Notes: a model not told the origin generated them from the letters alone. DNA of 64,000 nucleotides from an uncultured Alistipes sp. (GCF_963931675.1 NZ_OZ007039.1:1771806-1835805); one strand, 5' to 3'. Shown: positions 8,091-42,781, numbered from the stretch's first letter. Numbers and translations are program-made.

Positions 8091-8102
8091 AATCTTTTCG
8101 CC

Positions 8103-9173: not shown

Positions 9174-9293
9174 CGGTTGTCGGGTCGGCTTTTGTGAAAG
9201 CGGCTGCGGGGCAGTAGCCGAATGGAGGAAGGCCGCTTCGGCCCATCTCTTTTGGTCCCGCATCCTCATTCACCCTTCCCCGGGATCGGCGGG

Positions 9294-10292
9294 CTATTGG
9301 TGAAATCCCTTGATCATCAGTTTGACCCAGAGCGTCGACTTGATCGAACAGATCAAACGTCCGAGCAGGAGGATTTTCCGGTCGTAGAAACTCCGGCAGA
9401 ATGCCGGGCGGTAGTATTTCTTCAGTACTTCCCAATTGCACAGGATGCTGTAGGCGAGGATGTTGGCCGTTTCGGAGTTCCATCTCTCGCAGCGCCTCAT
9501 TTCGCGCCTCAACCGGGAGAAAAGGGTCCGGTTGGCCAGGTAGAGAATCTCGTTGCTGTATCCGAGGCGTTCGAACAGCCGGATGATCTTCAGCCGCGTG
9601 CGGATCAGGGTCTGCGGTTCGATGCGGCGGTGGAGCAGGCTCCCCGGCACGAACCGGTAGTGGTAGGTCGGGTGGCTGAACGTGACGATGTGGGTGATGT
9701 GGGCACAATACTGGATCGTGAAGATCTCGTCCTCGGCGTAGTGGAGCGATTCGTCGAAGCGCAGCTCGAGGCGTTCGATCGTCGCCCGGGAGAACATCTT
9801 GTTCCAGGTCCAGCCGAAACCGCGGTGGCGCAGCAGGTCCGCAATGACAGGCATGCAGTCGTTGTGCCCGGACATGACCCGGCAGTCGCTCATGGTATAG
9901 ATACGGGTGCGGGGCGTTTCGCGGCGTCCGGGGCGCTCCTCGAAGAGATTCGTGAAGGCGATGCCGTCCTCGCCGATTCCGCTCTCGGCGAACTGCTGCA
10001 GGTGCTCGGGAACGACCCAGTCGTCGGAGTCCACGAACACCACGAATTCGCCCCGGGCCTCGTCGAGCCCCAGGTTCCGTGCTGCACTGACTCCGCGGTT
10101 GGGGCAGTCGAAGACCCGGATGCGCCGGTCCTGTGCCGCGTAGCGGTCGCAGACCGCCTTGCTGTTGTCCGTGCTGCCGTCGTTGATGAGCAGCAGTTCG
10201 AAGTCCGGCATGGTCTGAGCCAGAATGCTCTCGATGCAGGTCGGCAGGTACTTTTCCGCGTTGAAGACCGGGATGATGACCGAAATAAGCAT
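9294..10292 (-). CDS. family 2 glycosyltransferase
   Basis: N-terminal GT2 signature MLISVIIPVFNAEKYL...INDGSTD...VDSDD. Confidence 0.8.
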   Translation of the reverse strand: MLISVIIPVFNAEKYLPTCIESILAQTMPDFELLLINDGSTDNSKAVCDRYAAQDRRIRVFDCPNRGVSAARNLGLDEARGEFVVFVDSDDWVVPEHLQQFAESGIGEDGIAFTNLFEERPGRRETPRTRIYTMSDCRVMSGHNDCMPVIADLLRHRGFGWTWNKMFSRATIERLELRFDESLHYAEDEIFTIQYCAHITHIVTFSHPTYHYRFVPGSLLHRRIEPQTLIRTRLKIIRLFERLGYSNEILYLANRTLFSRLRREMRRCERWNSETANILAYSILCNWEVLKKYYRPAFCRSFYDRKILLLGRLICSIKSTLWVKLMIKGFHQ

Positions 10293-12964: not shown

Positions 12965-13036
12965 GGTGGATTCATCTAAGGGTTAGGATACATGCCTCTC
13001 ACGCATGACATAGGGGTTCGAATCCCCTATCCACTA
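12965..13036 (+). tRNA. tRNA-Glu (anticodon CTC)
   Basis: Manually folded. Acceptor GGTGGAT/ATCCACT, anticodon stem CATGC/GCATG with loop CTCTCAC (U33, A37), T-arm AGGGGTTCGAATCCCCT. Its 3' 18 nt are duplicated at 28921-28938. Confidence 0.75.
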
Positions 13037-13040
13037 CGAA

Positions 13041-13137: not shown

Positions 13138-13836
13138 CTATGTTTTTGTAATTTGTTTATTATTAGATAATTGCATTAACTCTCTTGCCTTGGGGATATT
13201 TACGGCAATCTTCCTTCCGTCCCGCTGGATAGCTGCAGCATACTTCGGATTCTTCAGAAAGTTATGGGTTTTGTTCCGCCCCCAATGAAAAGTCTCTGAA
13301 ATCTCCTTATAGCCAAATGCCCATTCTGAATCTTGTTTGCTCTCTTCTTCTTGAATCAGGGGTATGGGAGGGGTTTCCACTTCATCTGTGCTGTTTGGGC
13401 TCTTATCCGATGGGATGAAGTGTTTGAGGAATCTGTTCGTGTAGTCTTTCTGAAGGGATACACAACCACGAACTAACAGGATGAAGTCCCGTTCTTGGCG
13501 TAGTTCTGCATTCCTGTTGGCTTGCAGTTCAGCATTGATGGCTGCAAGGGTTTCCTTGGATGGCACATCAAATAGCTCTTGTTCTTGTTTGATTTCCTGC
13601 AGACGCTGGCGGCAGGTTGTCTTCTGACTATCACTTAACAGGCTCAGTGCGTCTTCTGCATGGTCAAATAATGTTGAAAGGTACTTTGAATATCCTTCCA
13701 GACCTTGAGTCTCTGAAAAGCCGTTATAGGTGGATGGGGCTTCATCTAACAGATGAGCATACTCACATCGTTTTAACTCTCTGAGTAAATTATTAATTCT
13801 TTCCATATTCTTCATTTGTATTATAGTATTCAACAT
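13138..13836 (-). CDS. hypothetical protein with a C-terminal basic, DNA-binding-like region
   Basis: Coding-like ORF at the edge of the island. The C-terminal segment HWGRNKTHNFLKNPKYAAAIQRDGRKIAVNIPKARELMQ looks like an HTH or excisionase-type tail. Confidence 0.45.
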   Translation of the reverse strand: MLNTIIQMKNMERINNLLRELKRCEYAHLLDEAPSTYNGFSETQGLEGYSKYLSTLFDHAEDALSLLSDSQKTTCRQRLQEIKQEQELFDVPSKETLAAINAELQANRNAELRQERDFILLVRGCVSLQKDYTNRFLKHFIPSDKSPNSTDEVETPPIPLIQEEESKQDSEWAFGYKEISETFHWGRNKTHNFLKNPKYAAAIQRDGRKIAVNIPKARELMQLSNNKQITKT

Positions 13837-15421
13837 TCAATGTGGGAACAAGCCCATGTTTGGCATATTCCTGCATCATAATCGCCTGTACTTGCTCGAC
13901 TGGCATTTGGCCGTTCATTACGACCACGGCATCATGAATGCCTAAAGCTGCCATGCCTCGTTTTCTGAAAAGTACATTGAGAGCAGGTGTAAAGATGCTG
14001 CTTTCGAGCTGCATCATTTTGTGGGGAATCTGAATCTTATCTTTCGTACTTCCGTCGGAATAGGTTATATATTCCCCATACGCGTCACATTCCATGTGAA
14101 ATTTCCGTTTGTAATATCGGATGATCTTCATGACAGTTGGATACTTGCCTTGAAATGATTTTGCCCACACATTGCCTTCTTGCACATTCTTGGAGTAGGA
14201 ATAAAACACTTTGGCAAACATCAGCTGTTTGACTTGGCTTCGGTCATAATCGGGGAATGCCATCATTATATCATCCCACAGCAAACCATGGGAGGTCCGA
14301 TACATATACTCCCAAACATCCTTCTTGATTCCTCTGACCTTTGCAACTGTATCTGTTTCTATATTACTGTTAATCAGTAAATTGCAAAGAATATTCATAA
14401 AATAATGGAAATTATTATAAGGAATATTATTAAATAAAAAAGAAGAAATTAAATAATATATTTTAATAAAACTATTAGAAGAATTAAAAGAAGAATATAT
14501 ACTTAACTTATTGATTGATAAATAATAATCTAATATAAAATAGTTAAACAACAAAGGATGTGAGTTCCTGCAATCTATGGAGTATCTGATGTTGGTAAAC
14601 CTCTTCAGTAACTTTGGTAACTGTGTGCCTATGTGATAATACCTTCCATTGGAATCGCTACTCTCAATCTCCTTGTATGTCTTACTTGTTATTTTATCTA
14701 TTATATATTGATAATGCAACTTGCTGTACGTTGACGGGAAAGGAAATGTTGACATAAACATCTCTAATCCTTGTTTATCCTCAATCTTCAGCTTGCGGAC
14801 ATTCGCATTGTAGCGTTCGATGAATTTCGTACCATCCTCGCACAAGTATGTTTGTGCAACACTTTTGGCAGTCTCTATATTTTCTTGATGACGTTCTGCA
14901 AGGAGGTGTTGCAATCTGTCTAAATCTTCTTCAACTTTCTTGTTGATGAATTTCTGGGGATGGAATGTTTCTGGAGAAATGAGCCTGTACAAAGACCCAC
15001 TTCTTTCCAAAATCATTTTGAACTGCAACGTGTTGAGCATATAGTTATAGTAGCGATATTGCTTTTGCAATATCACTGTGGATAGAGCAAACCATCCCTG
15101 TTCATTACTCAAACCGCGTATGTACAATTGGTGGAGAAGAGTCATGAAGTGGATTTTCGTAATCTCTCTGTTTGGTTTGGGGAGATTATGGACAATTGGT
15201 ATGAGCTCTCCTATGGGATTGGGTTTGTATGTAAGAGCCATCTCTTGCAGAGGAATGGGTTTGCCTGCAATTTCTGCGTCAAGGTATTCAGAGGGCTGGC
15301 GCCATTCATTTAACGGATTACTCACATAGTCTATATAGGCATCCACAAGCTGTGAAATTGTTTTGTAGGGTGGATTATATATTATTAACTCTTTCATAAT
15401 CTTATAATTTGTAAACAGCAT
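13793..15421 (-). CDS. hypothetical protein (542 aa; possible replication or priming function)
   Basis: Long AT-rich ORF with an internal low-complexity stretch. A C-terminal acidic hDxxvv-like block (ALGIHDAVVV) is the only hint of function. Confidence 0.45.
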   Translation of the reverse strand: MLFTNYKIMKELIIYNPPYKTISQLVDAYIDYVSNPLNEWRQPSEYLDAEIAGKPIPLQEMALTYKPNPIGELIPIVHNLPKPNREITKIHFMTLLHQLYIRGLSNEQGWFALSTVILQKQYRYYNYMLNTLQFKMILERSGSLYRLISPETFHPQKFINKKVEEDLDRLQHLLAERHQENIETAKSVAQTYLCEDGTKFIERYNANVRKLKIEDKQGLEMFMSTFPFPSTYSKLHYQYIIDKITSKTYKEIESSDSNGRYYHIGTQLPKLLKRFTNIRYSIDCRNSHPLLFNYFILDYYLSINKLSIYSSFNSSNSFIKIYYLISSFLFNNIPYNNFHYFMNILCNLLINSNIETDTVAKVRGIKKDVWEYMYRTSHGLLWDDIMMAFPDYDRSQVKQLMFAKVFYSYSKNVQEGNVWAKSFQGKYPTVMKIIRYYKRKFHMECDAYGEYITYSDGSTKDKIQIPHKMMQLESSIFTPALNVLFRKRGMAALGIHDAVVVMNGQMPVEQVQAIMMQEYAKHGLVPTLNVEYYNTNEEYGKN

Positions 15422-16650: not shown

Positions 16651-17277
16651 TTATAAATATTTGTAAAGCTTCCGGATGGTCATAATTGAAGTTCCAGTAA
16701 TGGCGCTAATCTGTCTCAACGAAAGCCCCTTTCTTAATAAGGAAATTTCTTTTGAATACTGTGCCTTCATCTGCTCATCTGTTTTCTTATAGGTTGATGG
16801 GCGACCCATCTTAATGCCCTCTTTACGACATTTGGCAATATGCTGCTCTCTACCACTAGCCATACGTTCCCGAATAGTCAGGCGTTCCATTTGAGCAATT
16901 TCAAGCAGGATGGTACAAATCAAAGAAGCAATGGGGTTGATTTTCCCTTTGATAAGCGTTTCAAGGTTGTAGTTTTTTACATAGAGGCATATTCCAAGTT
17001 CATTGAGGAGTTGGATGACCTTCAAGGCTTCAAGTGTATTTCTGCCCAATCTTGAAATTTCCAAGACACATACTCGATCAATAGAGTGCGTTTTGACATA
17101 CTCCACCATCTCCATGATTTCGGGACGCTCCTCATTTTTCTTGGCGCCACTGACCTTGTTGGCAAAGACCCTTTCAATATTCCATCTCTGCTGCTGGCAA
17201 TATACCGTCAACTCATTCACCTGTCTATTGTAGTCTTGGCTATTTGTAGAAACACGACAAAATAGTACAACCTTCAT
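16651..17277 (-). CDS. serine site-specific recombinase (resolvase/invertase family)
   Basis: N-terminal catalytic block VVLFCRVSTNSQD (nucleophile Ser10), a resolvase core, and a C-terminal HTH (LSLRQISAITGTSIMTIRKLYK). Confidence 0.85.
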   Translation of the reverse strand: MKVVLFCRVSTNSQDYNRQVNELTVYCQQQRWNIERVFANKVSGAKKNEERPEIMEMVEYVKTHSIDRVCVLEISRLGRNTLEALKVIQLLNELGICLYVKNYNLETLIKGKINPIASLICTILLEIAQMERLTIRERMASGREQHIAKCRKEGIKMGRPSTYKKTDEQMKAQYSKEISLLRKGLSLRQISAITGTSIMTIRKLYKYL

Positions 17278-17278
17278 G

Positions 17279-17596
17279 TTATTGAATGTTATAAAGTTTC
17301 TTTACCTGCTTTACATAATCTGAGGTCCGTTCTACGGCATGGTCAATTACATTAACCAATTGGTCAAAGTATACATCCTCAATAACACTGATGATGGTCA
17401 TGTCATTCCCGCGCAGCTCTATATCAAACAGGTCCTTCCCTTCATTGTACTTAACGAACACCCATCCCCGATGCTTGAATCCGTTCACCATGAATGCCAA
17501 TCCCTTGTCATCAGGAAGTGCCGTGGGGCGATGAAAGCCCCACGAAAACACTACCATCAATTGTGTACGGAGTATTGAAAGAATGTAGTCAGCCAT
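17279..17596 (-). CDS. hypothetical protein (105 aa) in the recombinase operon
   Basis: Tightly packed (2-nt gap to the recombinase gene) on the same strand. Confidence 0.4.
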   Translation of the reverse strand: MADYILSILRTQLMVVFSWGFHRPTALPDDKGLAFMVNGFKHRGWVFVKYNEGKDLFDIELRGNDMTIISVIEDVYFDQLVNVIDHAVERTSDYVKQVKKLYNIQ

Positions 17597-17599
17597 AAT

Positions 17600-17926
17600 T
17601 TAGAAGACCTTGACAATAGACTCCCATCTCAAAGAGCGCCAAGCCCCTTTCTCAATATCAAAGTAGGCGGTTGTGCTGTACAACTCGCGGCTGCAACCTT
17701 TGCCATTGATATACTTTTCAACCAGACTCTTTGAGGTCGTTCCCCATGCCTCACGCACCTCACCATTCTTTTTGATATAGATGAAGTGAGCAACTCCGCT
17801 GCGCAGCTTCTCTTTCAAAGACTCAATCATCATAGCCTTCGCACCTGCTATCAAAAGATTCTGCGTGCGGTCTGCTATCACATTCATCCGTACAGCCGTC
17901 GTGTCAGTAATAATCAAAGCATTCAT
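17600..17926 (-). CDS. SH3 beta-barrel fold protein (DUF2693/WYL_2-like)
   Basis: The block FIYIKKNGEVREAWGTT matches the F.Y.KkDGs.R.a.GTL signature of that family. The start is chosen at MNALIIT. Confidence 0.4.
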   Translation of the reverse strand: MNALIITDTTAVRMNVIADRTQNLLIAGAKAMMIESLKEKLRSGVAHFIYIKKNGEVREAWGTTSKSLVEKYINGKGCSRELYSTTAYFDIEKGAWRSLRWESIVKVF

Positions 17927-17952
17927 GTTTTTGTAAGATTTTTTATTACACA

Positions 17953-18123
17953 ATCAATAATTTCTGCGATACTTCGTCGGATCCCACTTCCATCCCATCA
18001 AGTTGTACAGGCACTCCACTGCGTGAAAATGCGAGCAGCATCCCATGACCTTCTTGCCGTCAATGTCCCAAATTCCCCAACCGCTGCCTGAACGACTGAT
18101 GTGATATTTTCTTGCCTGTACCA
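17953..18123 (-). CDS. small hypothetical protein (56 aa, MVQARKYHISRSGSGWGIWDIDGKK...)
   Basis: Read directly from the sequence, since it falls below the ORF-track cutoff. It is first in a four-gene minus-strand operon that ends with the serine recombinase. Confidence 0.25.
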
Positions 18124-18318
18124 TAATTGACTTTTGATGTATTGTTTAACCCTTTTCTTGTATTGCAAAGATACAACATAAATCAATTGTATACAAATAT
18201 TTCGCCCTGAAAATTGACATATACAGCAATTATTTTATCAAAAAGGCATATTTAATACACATTCTGCGGCTTTTTTATTAACTTTGTATTTGATGTATAT
18301 GTCAACCAATTGAAAAAG

Positions 18319-18639
18319 ATGGAAACCAAGGTTACAATTACAGATGAATTGCGAGTGAAAGAACTGCTCAAGGAGCGTGGCATGATGATGAAAGACTTTG
18401 CAGAACAAATCGGCATCAGCCGTGAGACTCTGACCAGAGCCCTGCAGGGAAATCCACAATATTCCACACTCAAAACTATTGCTGACGGGCTTGGACTATC
18501 TGTCCGTGATCTGTTCAAACCCCAACAAGAGCAACTCCTTCAAGGTGTGATAACATATAATGGAGAGGCCTATGTGATCCGTAATCGCGAGGAGTTTGAT
18601 GCGCTGGTTGACATCATTCATCATGGAGTGGATAAGTAA
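18319..18639 (+). CDS. XRE-family HTH transcriptional regulator (possible C-protein/controller of the downstream R-M gene)
   Basis: Canonical HTH_3 block KDFAEQIGISRETLTRALQG. It lies 13 nt upstream of the R-M gene. Confidence 0.75.
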   Translation: METKVTITDELRVKELLKERGMMMKDFAEQIGISRETLTRALQGNPQYSTLKTIADGLGLSVRDLFKPQQEQLLQGVITYNGEAYVIRNREEFDALVDIIHHGVDK

Positions 18640-18651
18640 ATAAGAGGCAAT

Positions 18652-19188
18652 ATGGCAAAGAAAGCATCTTTTTCCTATATACAGGCTGAACAGTCCCTCA
18701 AACAACTTGCAGGGCAACAGCTCCGTGATACGCTTGGCTATGAGTTGCTACGCACTTTCTGCAGTTATGGAGATGCAAGCATTCAACGGCTCATTGACGG
18801 TAAAGGCAATGAAGCAAAGGATGGCTGTACACTCCTTGTCAAGAAAAAAATGGCTTACCGCCCTGTTGAATCGGGTGATCTGACGGATACACTCCATGCT
18901 TTGACAACAGACAAGGATATTGCTAAAAAGGAACCGCGCCTGTACGTTGTCTGTGATGGTACAAATGTGCTGGCCTACGACCCCAAAGAGGATGATATAT
19001 ACAGCAATACCATTGATCTGCTGTGGAAAGATTTTGACTTTTTCAAGCCCTTGGCAGGGATTGAGAAGGTACAATATGCAGAAGAAGCAGAAGCGGATGT
19101 CAAATCTGCAGAGATGATGGCGCGTATCTATGATGATATACGTCGTTACAATGATGTACATGATGAACAGCAGATTCATTACCTGTAA
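18652..19188 (+). pseudogene. N-terminal fragment of an MmeI-like Type IIL restriction-modification enzyme, interrupted by an IS
   Basis: The block LYVVCDGTNVLAYD aligns with the MmeI N-terminal domain (RYVLVCDFQRFRL). The frame terminates 3 nt into the IS. The expected D...EXK catalytic block reads D...LLVKKK, so it looks degenerate. Confidence 0.6.
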
Positions 19189-20431
19189 TAGTCAAGACTT
19201 GTTCTGACATTTTCTATACTATCGGGCAAAAAAAGTGTCCGATGCCATCTGCGAAGATACGCAACTATTCTCACTCTCACAACCTGGTGAGCCAATAACC
19301 TGCTCATCAGGTTGTATTTTCCCTGCATCCTGCAATTGATATCTCCTTGCCACCTCCATTCCTTCGAGGAAAGTCTGCATGGGTGTTTTCCCGAAACAGT
19401 ATTTCCCGGAGTGCGTCCTTTGCGTGTTATAGGAGTTCATCCAAGTGTCAAGGTCTGCCTGCAGTTGTTCTATCGAGGTGTATATCTTCTTCCTGAAAGC
19501 GATGGCGTAGAATTCGTTCTGGACAGTCCTGTTGAAGCGTTCACAGATGCCGTTTGTCTGCGGGCTCTTGGCCTTGATCTTGGAATGGTCTATGTCCTCG
19601 ATGGCCAGATACAGTTCGTATTCATGTGTTTCCCTGTTTCCGCAGTATTCGGTTCCCCTGTCCGTGAGCATCCTCATCAGTTTCAGGTCATGCTGCTCGA
19701 AGAACGGAACCACCCTGTCATTGAGCATGTCCGCCGCCACGAGCGCGTTCTTCCTGTCGTAAAGTTTGGCGAATCCGATTTTGGAATAGGTGTCGATGAC
19801 CGTCTGCTGGTAAATGTGCCCCACGCCTTTGATATACCCTACATAATAGGTGTCCTGCGCCACAAGGAAGCCTGGATAATAAGTCTCTATTTCCCCGTGT
19901 GCCTGTTTCTCCGCCTTGGCTTTTTCCAGCGCGGCCACCTGGTTCTCGTCAAGCACGATGCCTTCCTGCTCCACCTTGGTCGAAAGTGCCTTCAGGCGTT
20001 TCTGGAAGGTCTCCATGTCATGCCTGAGCCAGATGGAGCGCACTCCTCCGGGAGATACGAGTATGCCTTTCTTGCGCAGCTCGTTGGATACGCGTACTTG
20101 TCCCAAAGCCGGGTTGGCTATGGCCATCTGCACTACAGCCTGCTCTATGCGCTCCTCCACGCGGTTCTTTATCACCGGCTTTTTACGGGAAATCTCCTGC
20201 AGGGCCAGTTCTCCGCCCTGCTCGTACAGTTCCTTGAAACGATAAAAACTGTCACGGCTGTATCCCATAATCTTGCAGGCTCGTGACACGTTTCCCAACT
20301 GTTGGGACAGCTCAAGCAGTCCCAGTTTGTTCTTGATGACTTTTTCTGATGTGGTCATAACTTAATCTGCTTTTATGTTACAAATCTACTCTTTTTATGC
20401 GTAACTGTCAGATTAAGTCTTGACTAATTCA
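19184..20431 (-). mobile_element. IS481-family insertion sequence (1248 bp) with a 7-bp TSD CATTACC
   Basis: Terminal IRs TGTAATAGTCAAGACTTGTTCTGACA and TGAATTAGTCAAGACTTAATCTGACA (22/26 match). The direct repeat CATTACC lies at 19177-19183 and 20432-20438. Removing the IS and one TSD copy restores a continuous ...QQIHYLNLFMSRLLF... reading frame. Confidence 0.75.
19219..20358 (-). CDS. IS481-family transposase (HTH plus rve integrase core)
   Basis: rve-domain blocks [15 protein letters not shown] and YNTQRTHS, with an N-terminal HTH. Confidence 0.85.
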
Positions 20432-22597
20432 CATTACCTCAATCTCTTCATGTCCCGTCTGCTGTTCTGTTATTTTGCTGAGGATACAGGTCTGTTTCCT
20501 GAAGCAAACATGTTCTCCAACGCTCTGAAAACATGCACCAAGAGTGATGGCGGTGACCTTGCGCCTTTCATTGAGCAATTGTTCCTTGCCATGTCAACCA
20601 ATGATGAGGCGACCCGCAGCAACATGTCTGAAGCTGTCCGCCGGTTCCCATATGTCAATGGCGGACTGTTCAAGGAGCAGACGCCTATTCCTGTGTTGAG
20701 TTTCAGAACCCGTCTGCTGATGATTAAGTGTGGAGAATATGACTGGAAACAAATCAATCCAGACATCTTTGGATCCATGATTCAAGCTGTCATTGCTCCT
20801 GATATGCGTGCAGGCTTGGGCATTCATTATACCTCTGTCACCAACATCAAGAAGGTCATTCAGCCACTCTTTCTGGATGCTCTTGTTGATGAATACACCA
20901 GCAGCAAGGATAATCCCAAACGGCTGAATCAACTGCTTGTAAGACTGTCAAAAATCAAGTTCTTTGACCCTGCGTGCGGATCAGGAAATTTCCTGATTAT
21001 TGCTTATAAATCCATCCGTGAGTTGGAAATACGCATCTGGGACCGATTGCGAGAGCTGGCATCTGGTCAGGGTATCATGCCCTTCTCCAATATCAAGCTG
21101 ACGCAGTTCTATGGAATAGAGATAGACGAATATGCCTGTGACACGGCACGACTGTCACTTTGGCTGGCAGAGCATCAGATGAACAACCGCTTTTATGAGG
21201 AGTTCGGTTCACGACCAAACCCGCTCCCTCTGCACCAGAGTGGCAATATTGTTTGTGGTAATGCCTGCCGTATGGACTGGGAGCAGGTGTGCCCACACTT
21301 CGCTGATGAAGAGGTCTATGTGATGGGCAATCCGCCGTACCTGGGGAGCAGCTTGCAGAGTGATGAACAAAAGGCAGATATGGAACATGTCTTTTACCCT
21401 CACAAAGGATGGAAGAATCTGGACTATATCGCGTGCTGGTTTTATAAAGCCGCTCAATATATAAAAGGAGAGAACGCTTGCTATGCTTTTGTCTCCACCA
21501 ACTCCATTTGTCAAGGTGAGCAAGTTGAACTTTTGTGGAAGCACATTCTTAACGACGAGCTTGAAATCAAGTTTGCCTACACCTCATTCAAATGGAAGAA
21601 TAACGCCAAAAGTAACGCGGGTGTCACTTGTGCGATTATTGGTGTTGCCAATAAGAAAATGATTAAGAGTAAAACAATTTACTCTGAAAATACAGCCAAA
21701 ACTGTCTCAAATATCAATGCCTATCTTTTAGAGGGGGAAAACATATATGTATCTAAAAGATATTCACCAATGGCAATATTCCCGTCAATGAATTATGGCA
21801 GCAAACCTGTTGATGATGGGAATCTAATATTATCCCCTCAAGAAAAAGAAGACTTCTGCACAAAATATCCTCAATACGCAAATCTTATAAAGCCTCTAAA
21901 AGGAGCTAAAGAATTTATAAACGATTTAGATAGATTCTGTTTTTGGATAGATGACAATCAATTATCTTTTGCTTTAAACAATCCTGAAATAGCAGAACGG
22001 ATTGAACGAACTCGTACCTTTCGGTTAAAAAGTCCTGATGCAGGAGCCCGGGAATTAGCCAAACGTCCATATCAATTCCGGGAGTATTTCAATATAGAGA
22101 GTAATGCTATTATTATTCCTGCGCACTCTTCAGAAAATCGGGATTACATACCTATTGGCTATTTTGAAAAAAACGAACAGGTTGTTATTCCTAATTCCGC
22201 CTTTGCCGTCTATGATGCGGAATTGTGGCTGTTTGGGGTGCTGACCTCCAAGATGCACAATATCTGGGTGCGGGCTGTGGGAGGAGCATTAGAAACACGG
22301 ATACGTTATTCTGCAACCTTGTGTTACAATACTTTCCCATTTCCCAAGATTTCAGCAGAACAGAAAGAGGAGCTGACAGCTCTTGCAAGGGAAGTATTGG
22401 GGGTAAGAGCAGAGCATATAGAGATGACGTTGGGAGAGATGTACAATCCTGAAACAATGCCTGTGGACCTGCGTCTGGCGCATCAGGCGTTGGATGCAGC
22501 CATTGAGCGTTGTTACCGCCCTGAGCCCTTCCTTTCAGATGAGGAGCGATTGGAATACCTCTTCAAACTCTATGAACGAATGACAAAAAAGAAGTAA
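20432..22597 (+). pseudogene. C-terminal part (722 aa) of the MmeI-like Type IIL R-M enzyme: helical domain, gamma-class N6A methyltransferase, and TRD
   Basis: MmeI-family blocks LFMSRLLFCYFAEDTGLF, FPYVNGGLF, FFDPACGSGNFL (motif I) and VMGNPPYLG (motif IV). The ORF-track start uses TTG inside the IS end. Confidence 0.8.
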
Positions 22598-22599: not shown

Positions 22600-23436
22600 A
22601 TGTCCAAACAATGGTTTGCCGAACGTAACGGCTACAAGAAAGTAGATGACGTGCTTGTCAGAGAACGACTTACAGAGCCGTTCATGAATGGCATAGTCAA
22701 TATGTATATACAACTTTTTGAACAAATTAGGAAATTTAATGGCTCTGATAATTTATTTCTTGAGTTGGATAAATATATTCATGCTGAGTTATTAAAAAGG
22801 GATTTGTTCTCATACGAAGACCTGACTGCAATATTTAATTTACTAAGAGATAGACAATTAGCATGGTATGAGTTGTTTAGTCTTTTAGAGTGCTCTTGGC
22901 ATTTCTTTTTTTCTAACAGAGATTATGTATATGCAGGATACATTGATAAGGAGGCGAACCGAATCTTTGAAAGAGAAAATTATGCATATCGGATGAATCA
23001 TGATACAGGTGATATCATTGAGGTTACATCTGAAATGGAGATTGATTCTATCAATGAAGCGTTGCGTAATCCTGTTGACAGTGTAAGAACCCATATTGAA
23101 ACAGCCATTAAACATCTGTCTGCATCTCAAAAGGCTCCAGATTACAGAAATTCTGTCAAAGAATCTATCAGTGCCGTAGAGGCTTGTTGCAGAAATATTA
23201 CAGGAGAGACAACCCTTGATAAAGCAATTGCGAGATTGGAGGCTAAAGGCGTTGTTATTAACTCTGAAATGAAGAAAGGTTTTGCTAAATTGTATTATTA
23301 TACCAACGATGAAGCAACGGGAATACGCCATGCCTTGATGGATAATGGTAATGTTCCGACAAGCGATGAGGCTATCTATATGTTGGTTGTTTGTAGCGCT
23401 TTTGTCAACTACCTAACCAAGAAGAATATTCAATAA
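22600..23436 (+). CDS. AbiJ-NTD4-like protein with a C-terminal helical (possibly HEPN) domain
   Basis: The N-terminus MSKQWFAERNGYKK resembles the FSERxGY start of AbiJ N-terminal domain 4. It begins 3 nt after the R-M stop. A C-terminal HEPN assignment is tentative. Confidence 0.4.
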   Translation: MSKQWFAERNGYKKVDDVLVRERLTEPFMNGIVNMYIQLFEQIRKFNGSDNLFLELDKYIHAELLKRDLFSYEDLTAIFNLLRDRQLAWYELFSLLECSWHFFFSNRDYVYAGYIDKEANRIFERENYAYRMNHDTGDIIEVTSEMEIDSINEALRNPVDSVRTHIETAIKHLSASQKAPDYRNSVKESISAVEACCRNITGETTLDKAIARLEAKGVVINSEMKKGFAKLYYYTNDEATGIRHALMDNGNVPTSDEAIYMLVVCSAFVNYLTKKNIQ

Positions 23437-23437
23437 T

Positions 23438-24277
23438 ATGGCGGAACTGTATCACTATACAACAACAGCAAGTCTTCTTGGAATGTTAAAGGATTGTTCC
23501 GCAGAGGATCCTTATCTGACTATATGGGCAACACATTGTAATTATTTGAATGACAGAGCGGAGTTTTTACTGGGAGAAGAACTTTGTTGTAAAGCTATAT
23601 GTGAGTATGAGGAAGAACAGTGTATTCCTGAAAATGAACGGGTAAGAAGTATTGTAGAGGACTCTACAATAAAAGAATATAATAAAAAATCTTATGAAGT
23701 AGGATCTGCATTGCCCTCTCGCATCCATGAGGGTTATCCTTATTTATTCTCTCTTTCTCGGGCAAAAGATTCACTCCCCATGTGGGGATTATATGCCAAA
23801 GACGGTAATGGAATAGCTATTGTATTTGATGAGGAAGCACTCCAACAGGAATTTAGAGGGCAGGATTGTATTTATTGTCAAAAAGACAATACCTTACCCA
23901 TAAAAGCAACAATAGCAAAGTTGTATGTTGATAATATTCAGTTAAGCAAAGAGGCTAATCGTCTTACTACTATATTAATATTAAAATTAATATATAAGAA
24001 GGTTAGCTCTTATATCAAACACAAATCATTTGAGTTTGAGCAGGAGTTTAGGGTTGTTGCTACTGAATCTTCCCATATATTATTTAGAGAAAAAGCAGGT
24101 CTAATTGTTCCGTATGTTGAGCAAAAAATACCTGTAAAGTATATCAAGGGTATTATTGTAGGTCCTACGGCTGACTTTGACAGGATGAAAGAGGCTCTCT
24201 CTATCTTCTTAATAAATAAGAATATTAATGTCCGTAAAATAAATATTATTCAATCGGAAGTACCTTATAGGGGATAA
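23438..24277 (+). CDS. DUF2971 domain protein
   Basis: The blocks LYHYTTTASLLGMLKD...NYLNDRAEF, LPMWGLYAKDGNGIAIVF and EQEFRVV match the DUF2971 signature. There is a 1-nt gap to the upstream gene. Confidence 0.6.
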   Translation: MAELYHYTTTASLLGMLKDCSAEDPYLTIWATHCNYLNDRAEFLLGEELCCKAICEYEEEQCIPENERVRSIVEDSTIKEYNKKSYEVGSALPSRIHEGYPYLFSLSRAKDSLPMWGLYAKDGNGIAIVFDEEALQQEFRGQDCIYCQKDNTLPIKATIAKLYVDNIQLSKEANRLTTILILKLIYKKVSSYIKHKSFEFEQEFRVVATESSHILFREKAGLIVPYVEQKIPVKYIKGIIVGPTADFDRMKEALSIFLINKNINVRKINIIQSEVPYRG

Positions 24278-24281
24278 AATT

Positions 24282-26243
24282 ATGGAAAACCTTGTCAATA
24301 TATCCTACAACCAAACAGGGGCTTCAACGGATGTTGATGCCATGGGTATGCGTGAAATGCAGCGCATGGTCTATGAACAGCGCACCCGCAAGTACCTTCT
24401 TGTCAAGGCGCCGCCCGCATCTGGAAAAAGCCGTGCATTGATGTTTGTTGCTCTGGACAAGTTAGCCAATCAAGGGATCAAAAAGGTGATTGTTGCAGTG
24501 CCTGAAAAGACGATTGGCCGCTCGTTCAAAAGTACGGAACTCAAGCGCTTTGGATTCTTTGCAGACTGGCAGGTGGCAGACTACTTCAACCTGTGCAGCG
24601 GTAGTGATGACAGTCGCAAATCCGCCCGCTTCAAGGAGTTTCTTAGAAACAGTCCCAACAAGGTTCTTGTGTGCACCCATGCCACGCTGCGCAATGCCTT
24701 GAAAGAGGTGGAGAATGAGGAGCTGAACGACTGTTTCTTTGGGATTGATGAATTCCATCATGGTTCAGCAGATGCCTACAATGATTTGGGAGAACTGATC
24801 CGCCGGTTGATAACCTCTACATCTGCTCACATTATGGCTATGACGGGTTCCTACTTCCGTGGAGATCAGATTCCTATTCTCCGCCCAGAAGACGAGCAGC
24901 TATTCATGCCTTCTGTGAACTATGATTATTACAGACAGCTCAATGGCTACAAATACCTCAAAAGTCTGGGATTAGGTTATCAATTCTATCAAGGAAAATT
25001 CATTACGGCAATTCCTGAGGCTCTGGACACAACCAAGAAGACCTTGATTCACATCCCGCCTGTACAAGGCAGGGAATCCTATGCAAAGAAATATGACATT
25101 GTAGCTGACATTATTGCAGAGATTGGCGAGGTAGTGGATGAGGATGCAGAACACTTTATCAAACTGGTTCGCACGCCTGACGGCAGAATCCTCAAGGTGG
25201 GAGATCTGGTTGAGGATAATGTGGCACAACGCGCTGCACTGCAAAGCTATCTGCAACGGATGGATAGACGGGATGCTTTGGACATTCTGATTGCTTTGGG
25301 CACAGCAAAAGAGGGATTTGATTGGCAATGGTGTGAGGTGTGTCTAACTATTGGAATGCGTGCCTCCATGACTGAGGTCGTGCAGATTATTGGTCGTTGT
25401 ACAAGAGATTGTGAGGGAAAAACACATGCTCAGTTTATTAATCTTGTGCCTTGCCCTGATGCAGCACAGGAAGAGGTCAGCGTGGCTGTAAACAATATGT
25501 TGAAGGCAATAGCAGTCTCATTGCTCATGGAGCAGGTGATGGCTCCCAAGTGGGATTTCCGTACCAGACGAGATGATGACGAGCTGATCGCAGACAAAAA
25601 GAACAGAGTGCTTCATGTAGAAGGTTTGGCTGAGCCTACGGAACGTGCCAAATCCATTATTGAGAATGATATTACAGAGTTGAAAGCAACGGTTCTGTCA
25701 AGTGATATTTTGAAGCAGGCAATGGCAAATGATGCAATTGCAGAAGTTATCACACAAAGTTTGATTCCAAAGGTTATTCAAGAAAAATACCCAACTCTGA
25801 CGGAGGAGGAGGTAGAATGTGTACGTCAGCGGTTAGTTCTCTCTATGGCAACACAGGGAGCAGAGATAACGGTTGATGAACACGGGCGTGAGTTCATTAA
25901 CATTGCCAATAAATTCTGTGAGAAAGGTGTTGAACTGGATAAGTTGTCAATCAACTTAATTGATAGTATTAATCCATTCCAACGTGCTTATGAGATCATG
26001 GCAAGATCTCTTACACCTGAGGTTTTACGAGCCATTCAATTCAGTATTGAAGAACAGCGCTCTGATATGACCATTGAGGAGGCTGTACTTCTGCTGAAGA
26101 ATTATTTGCCCAAATACAAAGAGGAGCATAATGGAGCAATACCTTTACTAAGCGATACTGAACCATTGGCCAAAAGAATTGCCTTGGCTATTGATTTTGT
26201 AGCCAAAAAGAAACGTGAATACTTACGAACTGGCAAGCTATGA
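24282..26243 (+). CDS. SF2 helicase (DEAD/DEAH, ResIII-like) with a ~250-aa uncharacterised C-terminal region
   Basis: Motif I KAPPASGKS, Ia VAVPEKTIGRSF, II IDEFHH, III MTGSY, V ALGTAKEGFDWQ, VI QIIGRCTR. Confidence 0.75.
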   Translation: MENLVNISYNQTGASTDVDAMGMREMQRMVYEQRTRKYLLVKAPPASGKSRALMFVALDKLANQGIKKVIVAVPEKTIGRSFKSTELKRFGFFADWQVADYFNLCSGSDDSRKSARFKEFLRNSPNKVLVCTHATLRNALKEVENEELNDCFFGIDEFHHGSADAYNDLGELIRRLITSTSAHIMAMTGSYFRGDQIPILRPEDEQLFMPSVNYDYYRQLNGYKYLKSLGLGYQFYQGKFITAIPEALDTTKKTLIHIPPVQGRESYAKKYDIVADIIAEIGEVVDEDAEHFIKLVRTPDGRILKVGDLVEDNVAQRAALQSYLQRMDRRDALDILIALGTAKEGFDWQWCEVCLTIGMRASMTEVVQIIGRCTRDCEGKTHAQFINLVPCPDAAQEEVSVAVNNMLKAIAVSLLMEQVMAPKWDFRTRRDDDELIADKKNRVLHVEGLAEPTERAKSIIENDITELKATVLSSDILKQAMANDAIAEVITQSLIPKVIQEKYPTLTEEEVECVRQRLVLSMATQGAEITVDEHGREFINIANKFCEKGVELDKLSINLIDSINPFQRAYEIMARSLTPEVLRAIQFSIEEQRSDMTIEEAVLLLKNYLPKYKEEHNGAIPLLSDTEPLAKRIALAIDFVAKKKREYLRTGKL

Positions 26244-27385
26244 ATTGGGATGAAGAATTATTGAAACTCTTTGATACGGAAGAGTTTGCCGGAATAAAGG
26301 CCCCTACACGCAAGAAAACTTCCAGCAACCGGCTTGTTAACTCGTTTCTGGAGATCATATCCTTTGTTGAGGCAAACAACAGGGAACCTCAAACAGATGG
26401 ATCCATCAATGAGATGTCATTGGCAAGAACATTGGGATCAATCCGTAAGGATGAGCAGAAACGGGCTAAATGCCTGCCTTATGATTCTCTTGGCTTGCTT
26501 CAGGAAAAGGAAAAGACTATTGATGAGCAGTTGATAGAACTGTTCAATGATCCGTTATATAGCTCATCGTCTGAAGTTCAAGATATGTTTGAAATTCCAG
26601 ACTACATGAAGAAAGCAACCATAGGGCGTCCTGATTATATTGCACAACGTGTTGTTTGTGAGGATTTTGAAAATAAGTATGCAGGTGAATTCAAGGACGT
26701 TCATGCAAAGCTGAATGATGGACGCTATAAGTTGGTTAAGTTTAAGGATGAGCATCTCAAGACTGGAGCTTATTTTCTCGTGGACGGGATGCTTGTCCTT
26801 TTGGCTAAAATGGAAGGAGTCGCAAGAAAGAAAGACTACAAATTGGATGGCAGGACGCTATGCATTTATGAAAATGGTTTGCAATCAGATGTTCTACTTC
26901 AAAGTTTGGCAAAAGCAATCTACTCCGGTGGCTATTCTGTGAAGGATATGACGCTGACAGATGATGATCTTTTGAAAAAGGAATTCACTATTACCAAAAA
27001 CGATATACCAAGTGGCCATATCTATGTTTTGCGATCCAAATCAACCAACCCAGAGATAGCATCAATCAAAGATCTGTATAAGATTGGATTCACGACTCAA
27101 ACTGTTGAAGAACGTATTGCCAATGCTAAGAATGATGCAACCTATCTGTTTGCTGATGTGGAAATAGTGGCTTCATGGCAGGTGTTTAATATCAAAGCGG
27201 TGGCTTTTGAAAATTTGATTCACAAACTATTCAGCCATGTGCAATTGAAACTGTCTGCAGGAGATTCAAATCCAAAGGAGTGGTTCATAGTCCCTCTCTC
27301 GATTATTGAACAAGCTGTGAATTATATTATCAATGGTCAACCTATTGCTTATGATGCGCAGTTGAAAAAGATTGTGTTATTATAA
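26240..27385 (+). CDS. T5orf172 (GIY-YIG-like) domain protein
   Basis: The C-terminal block GHIYVLRSKSTNPEIASIKDLYKIGFTTQTVEERIANAK matches the T5orf172 signature. The start overlaps the helicase stop (ATGA). Confidence 0.55.
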   Translation: MNWDEELLKLFDTEEFAGIKAPTRKKTSSNRLVNSFLEIISFVEANNREPQTDGSINEMSLARTLGSIRKDEQKRAKCLPYDSLGLLQEKEKTIDEQLIELFNDPLYSSSSEVQDMFEIPDYMKKATIGRPDYIAQRVVCEDFENKYAGEFKDVHAKLNDGRYKLVKFKDEHLKTGAYFLVDGMLVLLAKMEGVARKKDYKLDGRTLCIYENGLQSDVLLQSLAKAIYSGGYSVKDMTLTDDDLLKKEFTITKNDIPSGHIYVLRSKSTNPEIASIKDLYKIGFTTQTVEERIANAKNDATYLFADVEIVASWQVFNIKAVAFENLIHKLFSHVQLKLSAGDSNPKEWFIVPLSIIEQAVNYIINGQPIAYDAQLKKIVLL

Positions 27386-27478: not shown

Positions 27479-28765
27479 TTACTCTTGTTCTTCCAATGTC
27501 TCCAATTCTCGGGTAGCAAGCGTATCGAACTTAGCCATCTCCTTTGCTTTTGCCTCGTCTGTGATGCGGATGTAGGGTTTCATATCTTCGTATGAATCGT
27601 GCCCTGTCCATGCCATAACAGTTGTTGGTGGAATACCAATGGAAAGGGCAAGGCAGATAAATGTTTTGCGACCCGTATGGCTTGTGATGTATTCATATTT
27701 TGGCTTGGTCTCTTCCTTGCGTGATGCTCCTTCAAAGGAGATTTTGGTTACAGGAGTATCAATCTCACATAGCCTGCCTATTTCCTTCAAACATCTGTTC
27801 AGAACAGCATTGTGAACTCGTGGTAAGACAAACTCTTTGGCAAAAGGATTCTTCTTGTATTTCTTGATAATCTCTTTGCTGTATTTGTTGAGGTCGATTT
27901 TCACAGCATCGCTATCTTTCTGTGTGGTTATCTCAAGGTAGGTGTCGCGAACATCGACTTTCCTTAGTTTCATGACATCTGAGAATCTAAGAGATGTAAA
28001 TGCGGATAAGCAAAACCAGTCTCTATATAAATCAAGGTGTTTTAACTGTTTGGGAAACTTATAATTGTAAACCTTGAGCAACTCATCTCTTTCAAGGTAA
28101 ATGATGGTTCTTTTTGGTAACTTCAATTTTATTTTGAAGCCTGCGCAGTCTTGATGAATAGGGTAGTTGTTGTCTCTGCACCATTTGAAGAACGCTCCAA
28201 TATCCTGCCAACGTTTTGTGAATGTGGTGTTCTGTTTCCAATATTTCTGAAAGAACGCGACCATGGCAGTGAGTTTGGTGTTGGTTAGGTCTTCTATTTT
28301 CAGAGAAGAATCGAATGCTGTCAGTTTTGCCCGAATCGCATTATATTTCTTTTTAGTGTTGGCGCTCCATGTGTTAAGGGTTGCTCGATTTTTGGTAAAC
28401 TCATCAAAGTATGCCAATAGCGTTTTATCCTCATGCTTGACGGTGCCCAACGCTATCTTATATTCATTTTTGAGTTGTCCTTCAGAAGGATATTTGTTAT
28501 CCAAATCATACTTCCTGAATATGGCATTGACCGTGGAAATCTTATTTGCAATGCTGTCGTTTATTTCACGGAAGGTGTATCCTTGTCCGTTGACGGTGTT
28601 GCGCTTTGCTTCATATAGTTTGTCATCCCACTTTGATGCAGCTATGGTTAATCCCGTCTCAAGGTCAACCCTGCATTTGTTGAATGTAACGCGGATGATG
28701 ATGGACTGTTCTCCTGCCTTGTTGATACGGTGGTGCAACCGTGTTTTGATTCTGTAGGTTAGCAT
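27479..28765 (-). CDS. tyrosine site-specific integrase (CTnDOT-type, with N-terminal Arm DNA-binding domain)
   Basis: Arm block QSIIIRVTFNKCRVDLETGLTI. Catalytic blocks HTGRKTF and WTGHDSYEDMKPYIRI (the Tyr nucleophile). It is adjacent to the element's terminal repeat. Confidence 0.85.
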   Translation of the reverse strand: MLTYRIKTRLHHRINKAGEQSIIIRVTFNKCRVDLETGLTIAASKWDDKLYEAKRNTVNGQGYTFREINDSIANKISTVNAIFRKYDLDNKYPSEGQLKNEYKIALGTVKHEDKTLLAYFDEFTKNRATLNTWSANTKKKYNAIRAKLTAFDSSLKIEDLTNTKLTAMVAFFQKYWKQNTTFTKRWQDIGAFFKWCRDNNYPIHQDCAGFKIKLKLPKRTIIYLERDELLKVYNYKFPKQLKHLDLYRDWFCLSAFTSLRFSDVMKLRKVDVRDTYLEITTQKDSDAVKIDLNKYSKEIIKKYKKNPFAKEFVLPRVHNAVLNRCLKEIGRLCEIDTPVTKISFEGASRKEETKPKYEYITSHTGRKTFICLALSIGIPPTTVMAWTGHDSYEDMKPYIRITDEAKAKEMAKFDTLATRELETLEEQE

Positions 28766-28920: not shown

Positions 28921-28938
28921 CTGGAATCCCCTATCCAC
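28921..28938 (+). repeat. 18-bp duplicate of the tRNA-Glu 3' end (attR core of the integrative element)
   Basis: GAATCCCCTATCCACTAC is identical to 13019-13036. Confidence 0.65.
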
Positions 28939-29164
28939 TACAGGGAAACGATCGGTGACGGTCGTTTTTTTGTGAGCGATCGGAAACGGTCGCTTTTTTG
29001 GTGTGTACCTGTGCGAGACGGGGGTGTGGGGGCGTGTGAGGAGGGAGGGGCCGACAAGGACCCGGCTGGAAAATGCGGCGGCCGCCCTCGAAAAATGCGG
29101 CGGCCGCCTTTCCAAAGGCGGCCGTCGCGGCATTGGTTAGTTTAGGTTAAAGGTTGGTGGGGAT

Positions 29165-38740: not shown

Positions 38741-39160
38741 TTACGATCCGGATTTTTCCGGATGCCCTTCGGTGAGCCGGTCGAGAATCTTCTGCGCCAC
38801 GATGCGCTGCCCGTCGGCCGTCATGTGCACGCCGTCGGGCGCATACTCCTTGAAAAAGGGCTGAAACGGATGGTAGATGTCGATGACCTCCCATCCGTAT
38901 CGGCGGGCAATGGCGGTCAGTTCGGGAATCAGCCGTCCGAGGCGTTCGTTGCCTCCGGTATATTTTGGCCCGGCCTGGGCATCGTTCATGGGCGGCGGCG
39001 TGACGAAGATACAGCGGGGGCTGGTGCGGCGCACCCATCCCGAGCGGGAGATGGTTTCGAGCAGGCGCGTGAAGTTGTCCGTAACTTCGTGCTGCCGATC
39101 GGCGAAGACGACTTTCGTATCGTTCGTGCCCAGGCATACGACGATCGCATCGCATCGCAT
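38741..39160 (-). pseudogene. SGNH/GDSL hydrolase lacking the N-terminal block I (truncated)
   Basis: Starts at MRCDAIVVCLGTNDT (block II GxND). Carries the DGVHMT block (DxxH) but no upstream GDS block. The repeat element at 39190 abuts the truncated start. Confidence 0.45.
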
Positions 39161-39189
39161 CCTTTTTTGACGCACTATTATGTTTATAT

Positions 39190-39614
39190 TGATTATCAAT
39201 ATTTACGGCTTAAAAGATGGGGATTTTAAAAATTTACTTGTTTTTTCACAAAAAATCGAAGATTTAACGATTTTTTCATCGTCTCCCTCCGCACAGAGGG
39301 GAAATAGGCAAAAACAGCCTTTAGGGGCCCCGACCGATCTCGTTTACAAGATAAGGCATGGCGGTGTTTATTTCGCCAAAATGGGCTGTAAAATCGAGGA
39401 TGGATTCACGGATAGTTTCGGGGTTGTCGTCCGTCATCTTGGGTGAGCTGATGGGGTGTTTTGCTTAGCCTTTGCCCCTGAGCTCTTAAAAGTTTTGCAG
39501 CCAAAAGAAAAAATGGCGGTAGCCATTTTCCATGGCGCAGCCATCTCTTTTCTTCCCTTATTTTGACTTTACTTTAATGAACGTATATATGAATACGGGG
39601 GATAAAGTAAAGTT
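39190..39614 (+). repeat. structured repeat element, copy 1 (~425 bp; a second copy lies at 55516-56075)
   Basis: The two copies share about 150 bp at the 5' end (gattatcaat...aaatttacttgtttttt.acaaaaaatcgaagatttaacg.ttttttcatcg.ctccctccg.acagagggg) and about 75 bp at the 3' end, ending in the hairpin gactttactttaatgaacgtatat.t.a.tacgggg.ataaagtaaagtt. Neither copy has a conserved ORF. Confidence 0.6.
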
Positions 39615-39717
39615 TCTTTTCTTTTGGCTGTAAATTATTTAGTGAATCCTTTGGCTGTTTTATATTTAATCGCGATATTTGCGTTACGATGATTATGTAA
39701 TGATTGGATGGAATAAA

Positions 39718-40842: not shown

Positions 40843-40854
40843 TGACGAGATATT

Positions 40855-42613: not shown

Positions 42614-42781
42614 CGTGAAGCCTATTTGCTCTTGAATCCAAAGTTAGGAAAATATTTCGAATTCTCGCTTTGTTTATGAAAATTGATGCCAATTTTTCTG
42701 ATTGGCAAATTGTTTGTCGTTTACCTATCAACCCGACGGAGGCGATCGGGAAAGTACAGGTACAGGTAACACTGAAAAAGA

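Follow-up and report, generated by a model that had tools for sequence, protein, structure and literature searches.

A YeeA/YeeB/YeeC-family locus with an IS-split methyltransferase gene and two embedded candidate defence genes in an uncultured Alistipes sp.

Introduction

Type I and type ISP (LlaGI, LlaBIII) restriction-modification (R-M) systems combine a gamma-class methyltransferase (MTase), a target recognition domain (TRD), an SF2 motor and a nuclease. One group of MmeI homologues, the 'second set' exemplified by Bacillus subtilis YeeA, has no nuclease motif according to Morgan et al. (2009; PMC2731913). The first ~100 residues of these proteins are unlike MmeI, no endonuclease activity was seen on expression, and their genes invariably adjoin yeeB, which encodes a helicase of the DEAD family, and yeeC, which encodes a protein of the GIY-YIG family. 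The authors proposed a type I-like system in which specificity/methylase, motor and nuclease functions reside on different subunits (PMC2731913). The locus described here lies in a stretch of 64,000 nucleotides from an uncultured Alistipes sp. (GCF_963931675.1, NZ_OZ007039.1:1771806-1835805; hereafter the window). It is a member of this YeeA/YeeB/YeeC (YeeABC) family that has been damaged by an insertion sequence (IS) and that carries two known candidate defence genes. Four genes at 22600-27385 had been taken in a preliminary description, made from the sequence alone, for one candidate anti-phage system matching no named one.

DnmA (YeeA) of B. subtilis is an N6-methyladenine (m6A) MTase with the non-palindromic site GACGAG (PMC7261158). 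Vibrio crassostreae 7F1_18 lost its resistance to one phage subclade when yeeAB was inactivated (bioRxiv 10.1101/2021.05.05.442762). The term phage defence candidates (PDCs) has been given to genes found repeatedly inside BREX, DISARM and type I R-M operons (Payne et al.; bioRxiv 10.1101/2024.01.29.577857; PMC12881386), and the survey of embedded defence genes covered four kinds of host system, namely Hma, BREX, DISARM and type I R-M (bioRxiv 10.1101/2024.01.29.577857). The literature was searched for a newer system name, and nothing was found beyond PMC2731913, PMC7261158, PMC9973331 and the Vibrio and embedding papers.

Results

Gene content and orthology to YeeB and YeeC

The operon consists of the following features (values are E-values; g1 to g4 denote the four genes of the preliminary description).

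18652-19184, + strand: 5' part of the MTase gene (non-catalytic N-terminal domain); Pfam MmeI_N 2.3e-15; ends in copy 1 of the target duplication CATTACCT (19177-19184)
19185-20431, - strand: IS481-family element, 1247 bp; transposase at 19219-20358, NCBIfam transpos_IS481 2e-80
20432-22597, + strand: 3' part of the MTase gene; MmeI_hel 3.2e-23, MmeI_Mtase 2.8e-109, MmeI_TRD 2e-74, MmeI_C 2e-22; duplication copy 2 at 20432-20439
22600-23436, + strand: g1, embedded cargo gene 1, 278 aa; Pfam AbiJ_NTD4 (PF18863) 1.2e-16, residues 6-156; PADLOC PDC-S32
23438-24277, + strand: g2, embedded cargo gene 2, 279 aa; Pfam DUF2971 9.7e-11; PADLOC PDC-S31
24282-26243, + strand: g3, YeeB-type SF2 (DExH) ATPase/helicase, 653 aa; Pfam DEAD 3.8e-9, ResIII 6e-8
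26240-27385, + strand: g4, YeeC-type protein, 381 aa; Pfam T5orf172 1.1e-13, MUG113 1.9e-13

Reference YeeB and YeeC sequences of B. subtilis and V. crassostreae were taken from the machine-read text of Fig S5 of PMC9973331 and compared by blastp. g3 was 50.8% identical to B. subtilis YeeB (612 aa, E 0) and 44.4% identical to V. crassostreae YeeB (685 aa, E 0). For g4 the corresponding values were 37% (344 aa, E 1e-63) and 30.5% (400 aa, E 9e-44). Judged by these alignments, g3 and g4 are orthologues of YeeB and YeeC. The g3 alignment reaches the end of the longer Vibrio YeeB, and g3 therefore keeps the C-terminal ~50 residues that are missing in B. subtilis YeeB. Plasmid homologues from three other phyla span 97-100% of g3 at 47-51% identity.

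Helicase motifs of g3 were located at 48 (GKS), 156 (DEFH), 188 (TGS) and 368 (QIIGR). In g4, an N-terminal helical region and a beta-rich middle domain precede a C-terminal T5orf172/GIY-YIG nuclease domain. This contains the GIY-YIG signature (GxIY ... YK(I/V)G ... R ... E, alpha/beta fold), with G259, Y262, K281, I282, G283, R292 and E347 invariant in 32 homologues; structural matches of g4 were to SLX1. NCBIfam yielded no match for g1, g3 or g4 and one meaningless sub-threshold match for g2. Sequence search of the Protein Data Bank (PDB) returned only marginal RIG-I-like matches for g3 (E 3.6e-4 and weaker), with none to HsdR or ISP motors, and no meaningful match for g4. PADLOC-DB 2.0 gave no specific model match for YeeB/YeeC, only weak ones to PbeA and PDC-S57. 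Identity as an Hma system was rejected, no Hma model being present among the PADLOC matches of g1-g4 or the best 25 of the MTase.

The preliminary description had placed the four open reading frames (ORFs) correctly, coordinates and common strand included, and its four domain calls were upheld by profile hidden Markov model search, all matches exceeding Pfam gathering scores. The junctions MTase-g1, g1-g2, g2-g3 and g3-g4 read TAA-ag-ATG, TAA-t-ATG, TAA-aatt-ATG and an ATGA overlap, that is, gaps of 2, 1, 4 and -4 nt; the first had been given as 3 nt, the others as measured here. A 250-aa C-terminus of the helicase, earlier singled out as uncharacterised, is a conserved part of the YeeB family, g3 aligning as far as the end of the Vibrio protein. 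The helicase-T5orf172 pair, to which no named system had been matched, is YeeB/YeeC by blastp and was described in 2009.

The methyltransferase gene and its IS481 insertion

As ORFs, the two pieces of the MTase gene run from 18652 to 19188 (MmeI_N) and from 20420 to 22597, the latter encoding the helical spacer, the MTase domain, the TRD and the C-terminal domain. The IS481-family element between them has imperfect terminal inverted repeats (19184-19212 and 20403-20431), is flanked on both sides by the 8-bp target duplication CATTACCT, and occurs as a single copy within the window. Excision of the IS with one copy of the duplication restores an uninterrupted ORF of 896 aa, as long as the intact homologue in Alistipes sp. 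An31A, the window's closest relative (helicase 94%, T5orf172 protein 86% identical). The identical IS-bearing allele was found in the public metagenome contigs L112 and L115, and the exact empty site with an intact 895-aa MTase in L113 and L114 (L numbers denote our collection of loci). Because IS-bearing and IS-free alleles coexist in metagenomes, the insertion is recent and polymorphic.

The restored MTase aligned with MmeI (PDB 5hr4) at E 1.4e-172 over residues 89-894, the alignment beginning at query residue 89 and MmeI residue 101. In an alignment of 15 homologues, the ExK of the PD-ExK motif was absent from the N-terminal region, and T.L.K was conserved at the position of the catalytic ExK of MmeI. 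The MmeI sequence at this position is presumably LLIEMK. The PADLOC model REase_MTase_IIG scored the protein at 5.8e-276, the match covering the MTase, TRD and C-terminal parts. A bifunctional type IIL/IIG enzyme was ruled out, given that the N-terminal region, where a PD-ExK endonuclease domain would lie, is without ExK and cannot be aligned to MmeI.

The TRD segment (about 20590-21430, MTase residues about 478-759) could not be aligned by blastn with L113/L114, the alleles being otherwise 97-99.8% identical, and identity of the MTase to An31A drops to 50-58% at residues 501-700. This suggests that recognition specificity was swapped inside one population. The divergence of the TRD is as would be expected of a specificity subunit under diversifying selection.

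The MTase gene has also been decayed or split independently at other loci where helicase and T5orf172 genes are intact, namely L025-L027 (a remnant of 220-267 aa), L019 and L116/L117 (split), in parallel with the window.

Synteny of a three-gene core

Species-representative genomes yielded 17 Bacteroidales loci, and metagenomes 80 loci with helicases 47-67% identical to g3. Eighty-three loci were informative (16 genome loci, An31A as L001, and 66 metagenome loci); the 14 other metagenome contigs were uninformative, ending near the helicase or showing cargo up to the contig end. An MmeI-family gene (~900 aa) was present upstream on the same strand in 16/16 genome loci, in An31A and in 66/66 metagenome loci. 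Downstream of the helicase, a T5orf172 gene was found in all genome loci and in 66 of the 67 metagenome loci whose contigs continue for at least 1.2 kb beyond it. The order MTase, helicase, T5orf172 held in 83/83 informative loci and on four plasmids from three other phyla. These plasmids, of Bacillus, Pediococcus, Arthrobacter and Providencia, are annotated with a DNA methyltransferase, a DEAD/DEAH helicase and a GIY-YIG nuclease; that of Pediococcus (7.7 kb) has only three annotated genes, all of the trio. At least 8000 candidate helicase homologues were scored, all at E <= 0.001, and 265 plasmid records carried a homologue.

Since this order is universal in the informative loci, the conserved unit comprises three genes, not four. 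Since YeeB and YeeC are invariably linked to nuclease-less MmeI homologues, the upstream 'R-M gene' is the third, specificity-giving component and not a neighbour.

In one helicase sub-clade (L042-L064, and L022 at 7936-8223), the helicase gene and the YeeC-like gene are separated by a small ORF of 75-100 aa. In L047, for example, it occupies 7999-8232 and is followed by the YeeC-like gene at 8223-9434. Its resemblance to the N-terminal motif of YeeC marks the small ORF as a second copy of that N-terminus or as a part split off from the protein. On the Providencia plasmid, a 95-aa ORF is accompanied by a gene for a 304-aa GIY-YIG protein.

The MTase-helicase slot and its cargo

The interval from MTase stop to helicase start was empty in 33 metagenome loci (-13 to 54 nt) and contained cargo in 33 (591 to 5348 nt); among the genome loci, 5 slots were empty and 11 had cargo. 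Slot length is thus bimodal, with no locus at 55-590 nt, and the slot was empty in 38 of the 83 loci. Cargo ORFs were on the operon strand in 51 of 52 cases, and 80 cargo proteins formed 40 BLAST clusters. Unrelated defence genes are repeatedly embedded at the MTase-helicase junction.

The commonest cargo family was that of g1, AbiJ_NTD4 (11 proteins in 10 loci); DUF2971, the family of g2, was found six times. Other cargo fell into the PADLOC families RhuM/PDC-S05 and PDC-S02/S13/S22/S23/M59A, or had CAP12-type TIR, KAP NTPase, Fic, YhcG PD-(D/E)xK, DUF3990 (with DUF3791), SLFN_AlbA_2, Bro-N, KilA-N or ORF6N domains. A complete Hachiman system (HamA and HamB) with one more gene fills the slot of L084 (1900-5999), and six genes (5.3 kb) that of L091 (649-6004). 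The TIR, DUF3800, KilA-N and ORF6N matches of singleton cargo families may belong to L091, as the scan did not tie matches to loci. Two recurrent families of about 210-260 aa, with N-terminal transmembrane (TM) helices followed by a coiled coil, occupy the slots of L001/L006/L007/L008/L011/L016 and L005/L009/L010/L019. These two families and several singletons had no significant Pfam or PADLOC match; one of the two gave a marginal SLATT-like match (RTasSLATT, E 0.016).

g1 and g2 as variable cargo

g1 matched PDC-S32 over its full length (1.1e-67, 5-276 of 278 aa) and g2 matched PDC-S31 (9.1e-12). The names PDC-S31 and PDC-S32 were not found in the text of the Payne preprint (10.1101/2024.01.29.577857) or in the part of its supplements examined. 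AbiJ was found alone in the slot (L034, L038, L039, L070), with other genes (L007, L011, L019, L118) and together with DUF2971 (the window, L004, L010, L116, L121); DUF2971 is also present in about a third of the AbiJ-bearing slots examined. DUF2971 occurred without AbiJ in L001, L009, L020 and L025. In An31A, the slot holds a DUF2971 protein only 40% identical to g2, a different second gene and no g1. GC content is 0.36 in g1 and 0.35 in g2, versus 0.44 in the MTase gene and 0.45 in the helicase gene.

Some distant homologues of g1 occupy YeeABC slots, one lies within a type I R-M operon, flanked by hsdM and hsdS, and others stand alone in mobile elements. A 'GIRHA' motif is common to g1 and its 34%-identical homologue in the slot of L034; its spacing is not that of the canonical HEPN motif Rx4-6H, which was not identified in g1. 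The C-terminal domain of g1 may be HEPN-like, and g1 is a probable abortive-infection RNase or Abi-type effector. On the evidence of their distribution, g1 and g2 are independently assorting, autonomous single-gene defence candidates.

The view of g1-g4 as a single system was not sustained: g1 and g2 are variable cargo, and the core has an empty slot in 38/83 loci. Co-conservation across genomes, which the preliminary description had proposed to check, was found for the helicase-T5orf172 pair and not for the four genes. The translational coupling that it had seen in the ATGA overlap of this pair is real, the two genes being conserved and always adjacent. Nor are the genes without a known counterpart, g1 and g2 falling into PDC-S32 and PDC-S31 and g3 and g4 being YeeB and YeeC. 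The adjoining upstream gene is of the MmeI family, as had been recognised; its IS split and its nuclease-less YeeA/DnmA type had been missed, and it is part of the same system. That this is a defence locus was called correctly.

The integrative element and its surroundings

The whole locus is carried on a 15.9-kb integrative element at tRNA-Glu, bounded by the perfect 18-nt direct repeat GAATCCCCTATCCACTAC (13020-13037 and 28924-28941). Its GC content is 0.41, versus 0.59 outside. Further features are as follows.

12965-13037, + strand: tRNA-Glu (CTC), by ARAGORN; the last 18 nt (13020-13037) are the left attachment repeat
18310-18639, + strand: XRE/Cro-type helix-turn-helix (HTH) gene, Pfam HTH_26 4.4e-11 and HTH_3; 12 nt 5' of the MTase gene
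27479-28765, - strand: tyrosine integrase of the element, Arm-DNA-bind_5 1.3e-9, Phage_integrase 5.2e-6
28924-28941, + strand: right attachment repeat, a perfect 18-nt copy of the tRNA-Glu 3' end

Homologues of the HTH gene, 89% and 80% identical, lie directly 5' of the MTase gene in L001 and L004, and the HTH protein is possibly the controller protein of the operon. An obligatory controller was ruled out, most loci having no such gene 5' of the MTase.

Divergent from the HTH-MTase operon, on its 5' side, is a module at 16651-17953 (- strand) of a resolvase, a 105-aa ORF and a WYL_2 (Sm-like SH3) protein. It is kept in one sub-lineage (L001, L004, L112-L115) and partly in L008, L010 and L125; in L125 the WYL_2 gene adjoins a stand-alone AbiJ homologue. 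Two ORFs that overlap each other (232 and 542 aa; 13138-15421, - strand), at the end of the island nearest the tRNA gene, had no match in Pfam and PADLOC searches and may be additional uncharacterised cargo of the element. Just beyond the right end of the island, the 17-nt sequence AAAATGCGGCGGCCGCC is present twice, 22 nt apart (29070-29108). Further stretches of low GC (0.33-0.5 in a background of ~0.6) at about 39000-52000 and 58000-64000 are probably other horizontally acquired islands.

Discussion

Proposed mechanism

The locus is read, with good confidence, as a composite operon in which a type I/ISP-like YeeA(DnmA)/YeeB/YeeC R-M core with an IS-split MTase gene holds embedded cargo. Gene content, orthology, synteny, cargo variability and the insertion and polymorphism of the IS were directly observed. 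The division of labour among the proteins, the MTase dependence of cleavage and the activities of g1 and g2 are what we infer. The MTase-TRD protein, having lost PD-ExK, would recognise the target sequence and protect self DNA by m6A methylation, and its non-catalytic N-domain would presumably act as the docking module that recruits YeeB and YeeC. The YeeB-type SF2 ATPase (g3) would translocate at the expense of ATP, and the YeeC-type GIY-YIG/T5orf172 protein (g4) would cleave DNA after translocation, in the manner of type I/ISP enzymes; restriction presumably requires all three proteins. g1 and g2 would be co-transcribed with the host operon. In this strain the restriction arm is probably disabled by the IS, and the embedded, helicase and nuclease genes remain. 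The viable dnmA deletion of B. subtilis, the coexisting IS allele, the other truncated or split MTases and the divergence confined to the TRD fit a dependence of cleavage on the MTase and do not prove it.

Several points weigh against this reading. To our knowledge, translocation or cleavage has been demonstrated biochemically for no member of the family, and we know of no activity ascribed to DUF2971. The AlphaFold model of g3 was unusable (mean pLDDT 53; shallow alignment, at least 69% identity). The HEPN assignment of g1 is weak, its C-terminus giving only a Hypoth_Ymh match (E 0.011) in Pfam at E up to 10, and no test of the PDC-S31 or PDC-S32 families was found in the literature searched. 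Despite the IS, a 725-aa ORF with MTase and TRD could still be expressed. In B. subtilis, dnmA-yeeB-yeeC neither restricted plasmids nor protected the cells from three phages, and dnmA could be deleted without harm (PMC7261158, PMC9973331). The B. subtilis YeeB of these negative assays is without the C-terminal ~50 residues present in g3.

Alternative explanations

We regard a novel anti-phage system of four components, g1-g4, to which the adjoining R-M gene would be unrelated, as highly improbable. Tight spacing and overlap on one strand would suit such a system, as would the order MTase-AbiJ-DUF2971-helicase-T5orf172 that recurs in L004, L010, L116/117 and L121. However, the core lacks g1 or g2 in most loci and has 38 empty slots, g1 is seen without g2 and g2 without g1, and homologues of g1 stand alone or in type I R-M operons. 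The DUF2971 proteins beside AbiJ in different loci are only 25-40% identical, and the linkage that does hold in 83/83 informative loci is that of MTase and helicase. A smaller unit, in which helicase and T5orf172 protein are an autonomous two-gene effector merely travelling with an MmeI-type enzyme, would explain the ATGA overlap, the constant adjacency of the two genes and their integrity where the MTase is truncated or split (the window, L025-27, L019, L116/117). Against this, some trace of an MTase was found at every informative locus, and because the associated MTases specifically lack the nuclease motif (also PMC2731913), their complementation by YeeC is implied. Loss of the MTase is also tolerated; a nuclease-helicase acting by itself would more probably harm the cell or depend on another means of target discrimination. 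We consider this effector very unlikely.

A different role might be sought for the cargo: the embedded genes, g1 above all, could be PrrC-like guards or regulators that monitor whether the R-M complex is intact and act once a phage inhibits it. g1 is from the commonest cargo family (11 proteins, 10 loci) and always directly follows the MTase in YeeABC loci, with 4-nt overlaps on both sides in L038; one homologue lies inside a type I R-M operon, and PrrC offers a precedent (cited in 10.1101/2024.01.29.577857). Yet 3 of 7 sampled distant homologues of g1 stand alone in mobile elements with no R-M genes nearby, and a slot that takes dozens of unrelated families, a complete Hachiman system included, argues for a permissive insertion site over a specific partnership. 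We consider guarding unlikely. The junction might further be a dedicated cargo-exchange site with cargo wired to its host, the AbiJ_NTD4/HEPN-like protein being a PrrC-like latent toxin restrained by the restriction complex and released by phage anti-restriction or by loss of the MTase. This we hold to be unlikely; if it were true, the IS-disrupted allele would be a natural 'trigger-pulled or disarmed' state. Finally, the cluster could have no immune role, with the MTase an epigenetic regulator and YeeB/YeeC relics, as proposed for B. subtilis. The restriction and phage assays in B. subtilis were negative and phage genomes show no avoidance of the DnmA motif (PMC7261158, PMC9973331), and in the window the MTase is probably inactivated by the IS. 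Relics would hardly be expected, however, to have three ORFs intact across four phyla with helicases at ~50% identity and the catalytic residues of both enzymes invariant. Moreover, the TRD is diversified between near-identical alleles, integrative elements and plasmids carry the system, YeeABC loci contain known defence systems as cargo, and the yeeAB knockout of V. crassostreae removes phage resistance (10.1101/2021.05.05.442762). We give little credence to a non-immune cluster.

Significance

YeeABC systems are very widespread, have been known since 2009 and are mechanistically uncharacterised. The IS-free Alistipes allele, with its full-length YeeB, is a reasonable candidate for biochemistry. 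The coexistence of IS-disrupted and intact MTase alleles, with helicase and nuclease intact in both, suggests MTase-dependent restriction as in type I systems; as far as searched, the coexistence of such alleles of the element in gut metagenomes is new to the literature. A modest novelty within the same literature is that YeeABC loci often host defence cargo: about half of the 83 do, and the junction that receives it is always the same. The guilt-by-embedding principle is thereby extended to a fifth host system, and the slot supplies candidate families, among them the two TM-plus-coiled-coil families and several without a Pfam or PADLOC match. Because PADLOC has no YeeB/YeeC model and scores the MTase as REase_MTase_IIG, automated annotation of such a locus would return a type IIG enzyme and two PDCs and leave helicase and nuclease orphaned. 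This is a trap by which a 'new' helicase-nuclease system is easily announced in error, and it misled the preliminary description.

Comparison with known systems

The closest described system is DnmA(YeeA)-YeeB-YeeC of B. subtilis and V. crassostreae, which shares with the window the three proteins, their order and strand, an MTase without PD-ExK, and identities of 44-51% (helicase) and 30-37% (T5orf172 protein). The window differs in the two genes embedded between MTase and helicase, in the IS481-interrupted MTase, in the C-terminal ~50 aa of g3 that B. subtilis YeeB lacks, and in an HTH gene 5' of the MTase that is found in some relatives. With MmeI (type IIL/IIG, PDB 5hr4), the helical spacer, gamma-class N6-adenine MTase, TRD and C-terminal domains align; the N-terminal ~90 residues of the window MTase are unalignable and without ExK, nuclease and motor being presumed to act in trans. 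Type ISP and type I systems probably follow the same logic of recognition of an unmethylated asymmetric site, ATP-driven translocation and distant cleavage, as generally understood of them and as remarked in PMC2731913. In contrast to them, YeeABC consists of three separate polypeptides and its nuclease is GIY-YIG/T5orf172, not Mrr/PD-ExK. Lactococcus AbiJ, an Abi protein with a C-terminal HEPN domain, shares the AbiJ_NTD4-family N-terminal domain with g1, a relatedness at the level of domains and not orthology. As in the operons surveyed by Payne et al., same-strand genes are nested in a methylase-containing defence operon; here the host system is YeeABC, which lies outside the four surveyed there.

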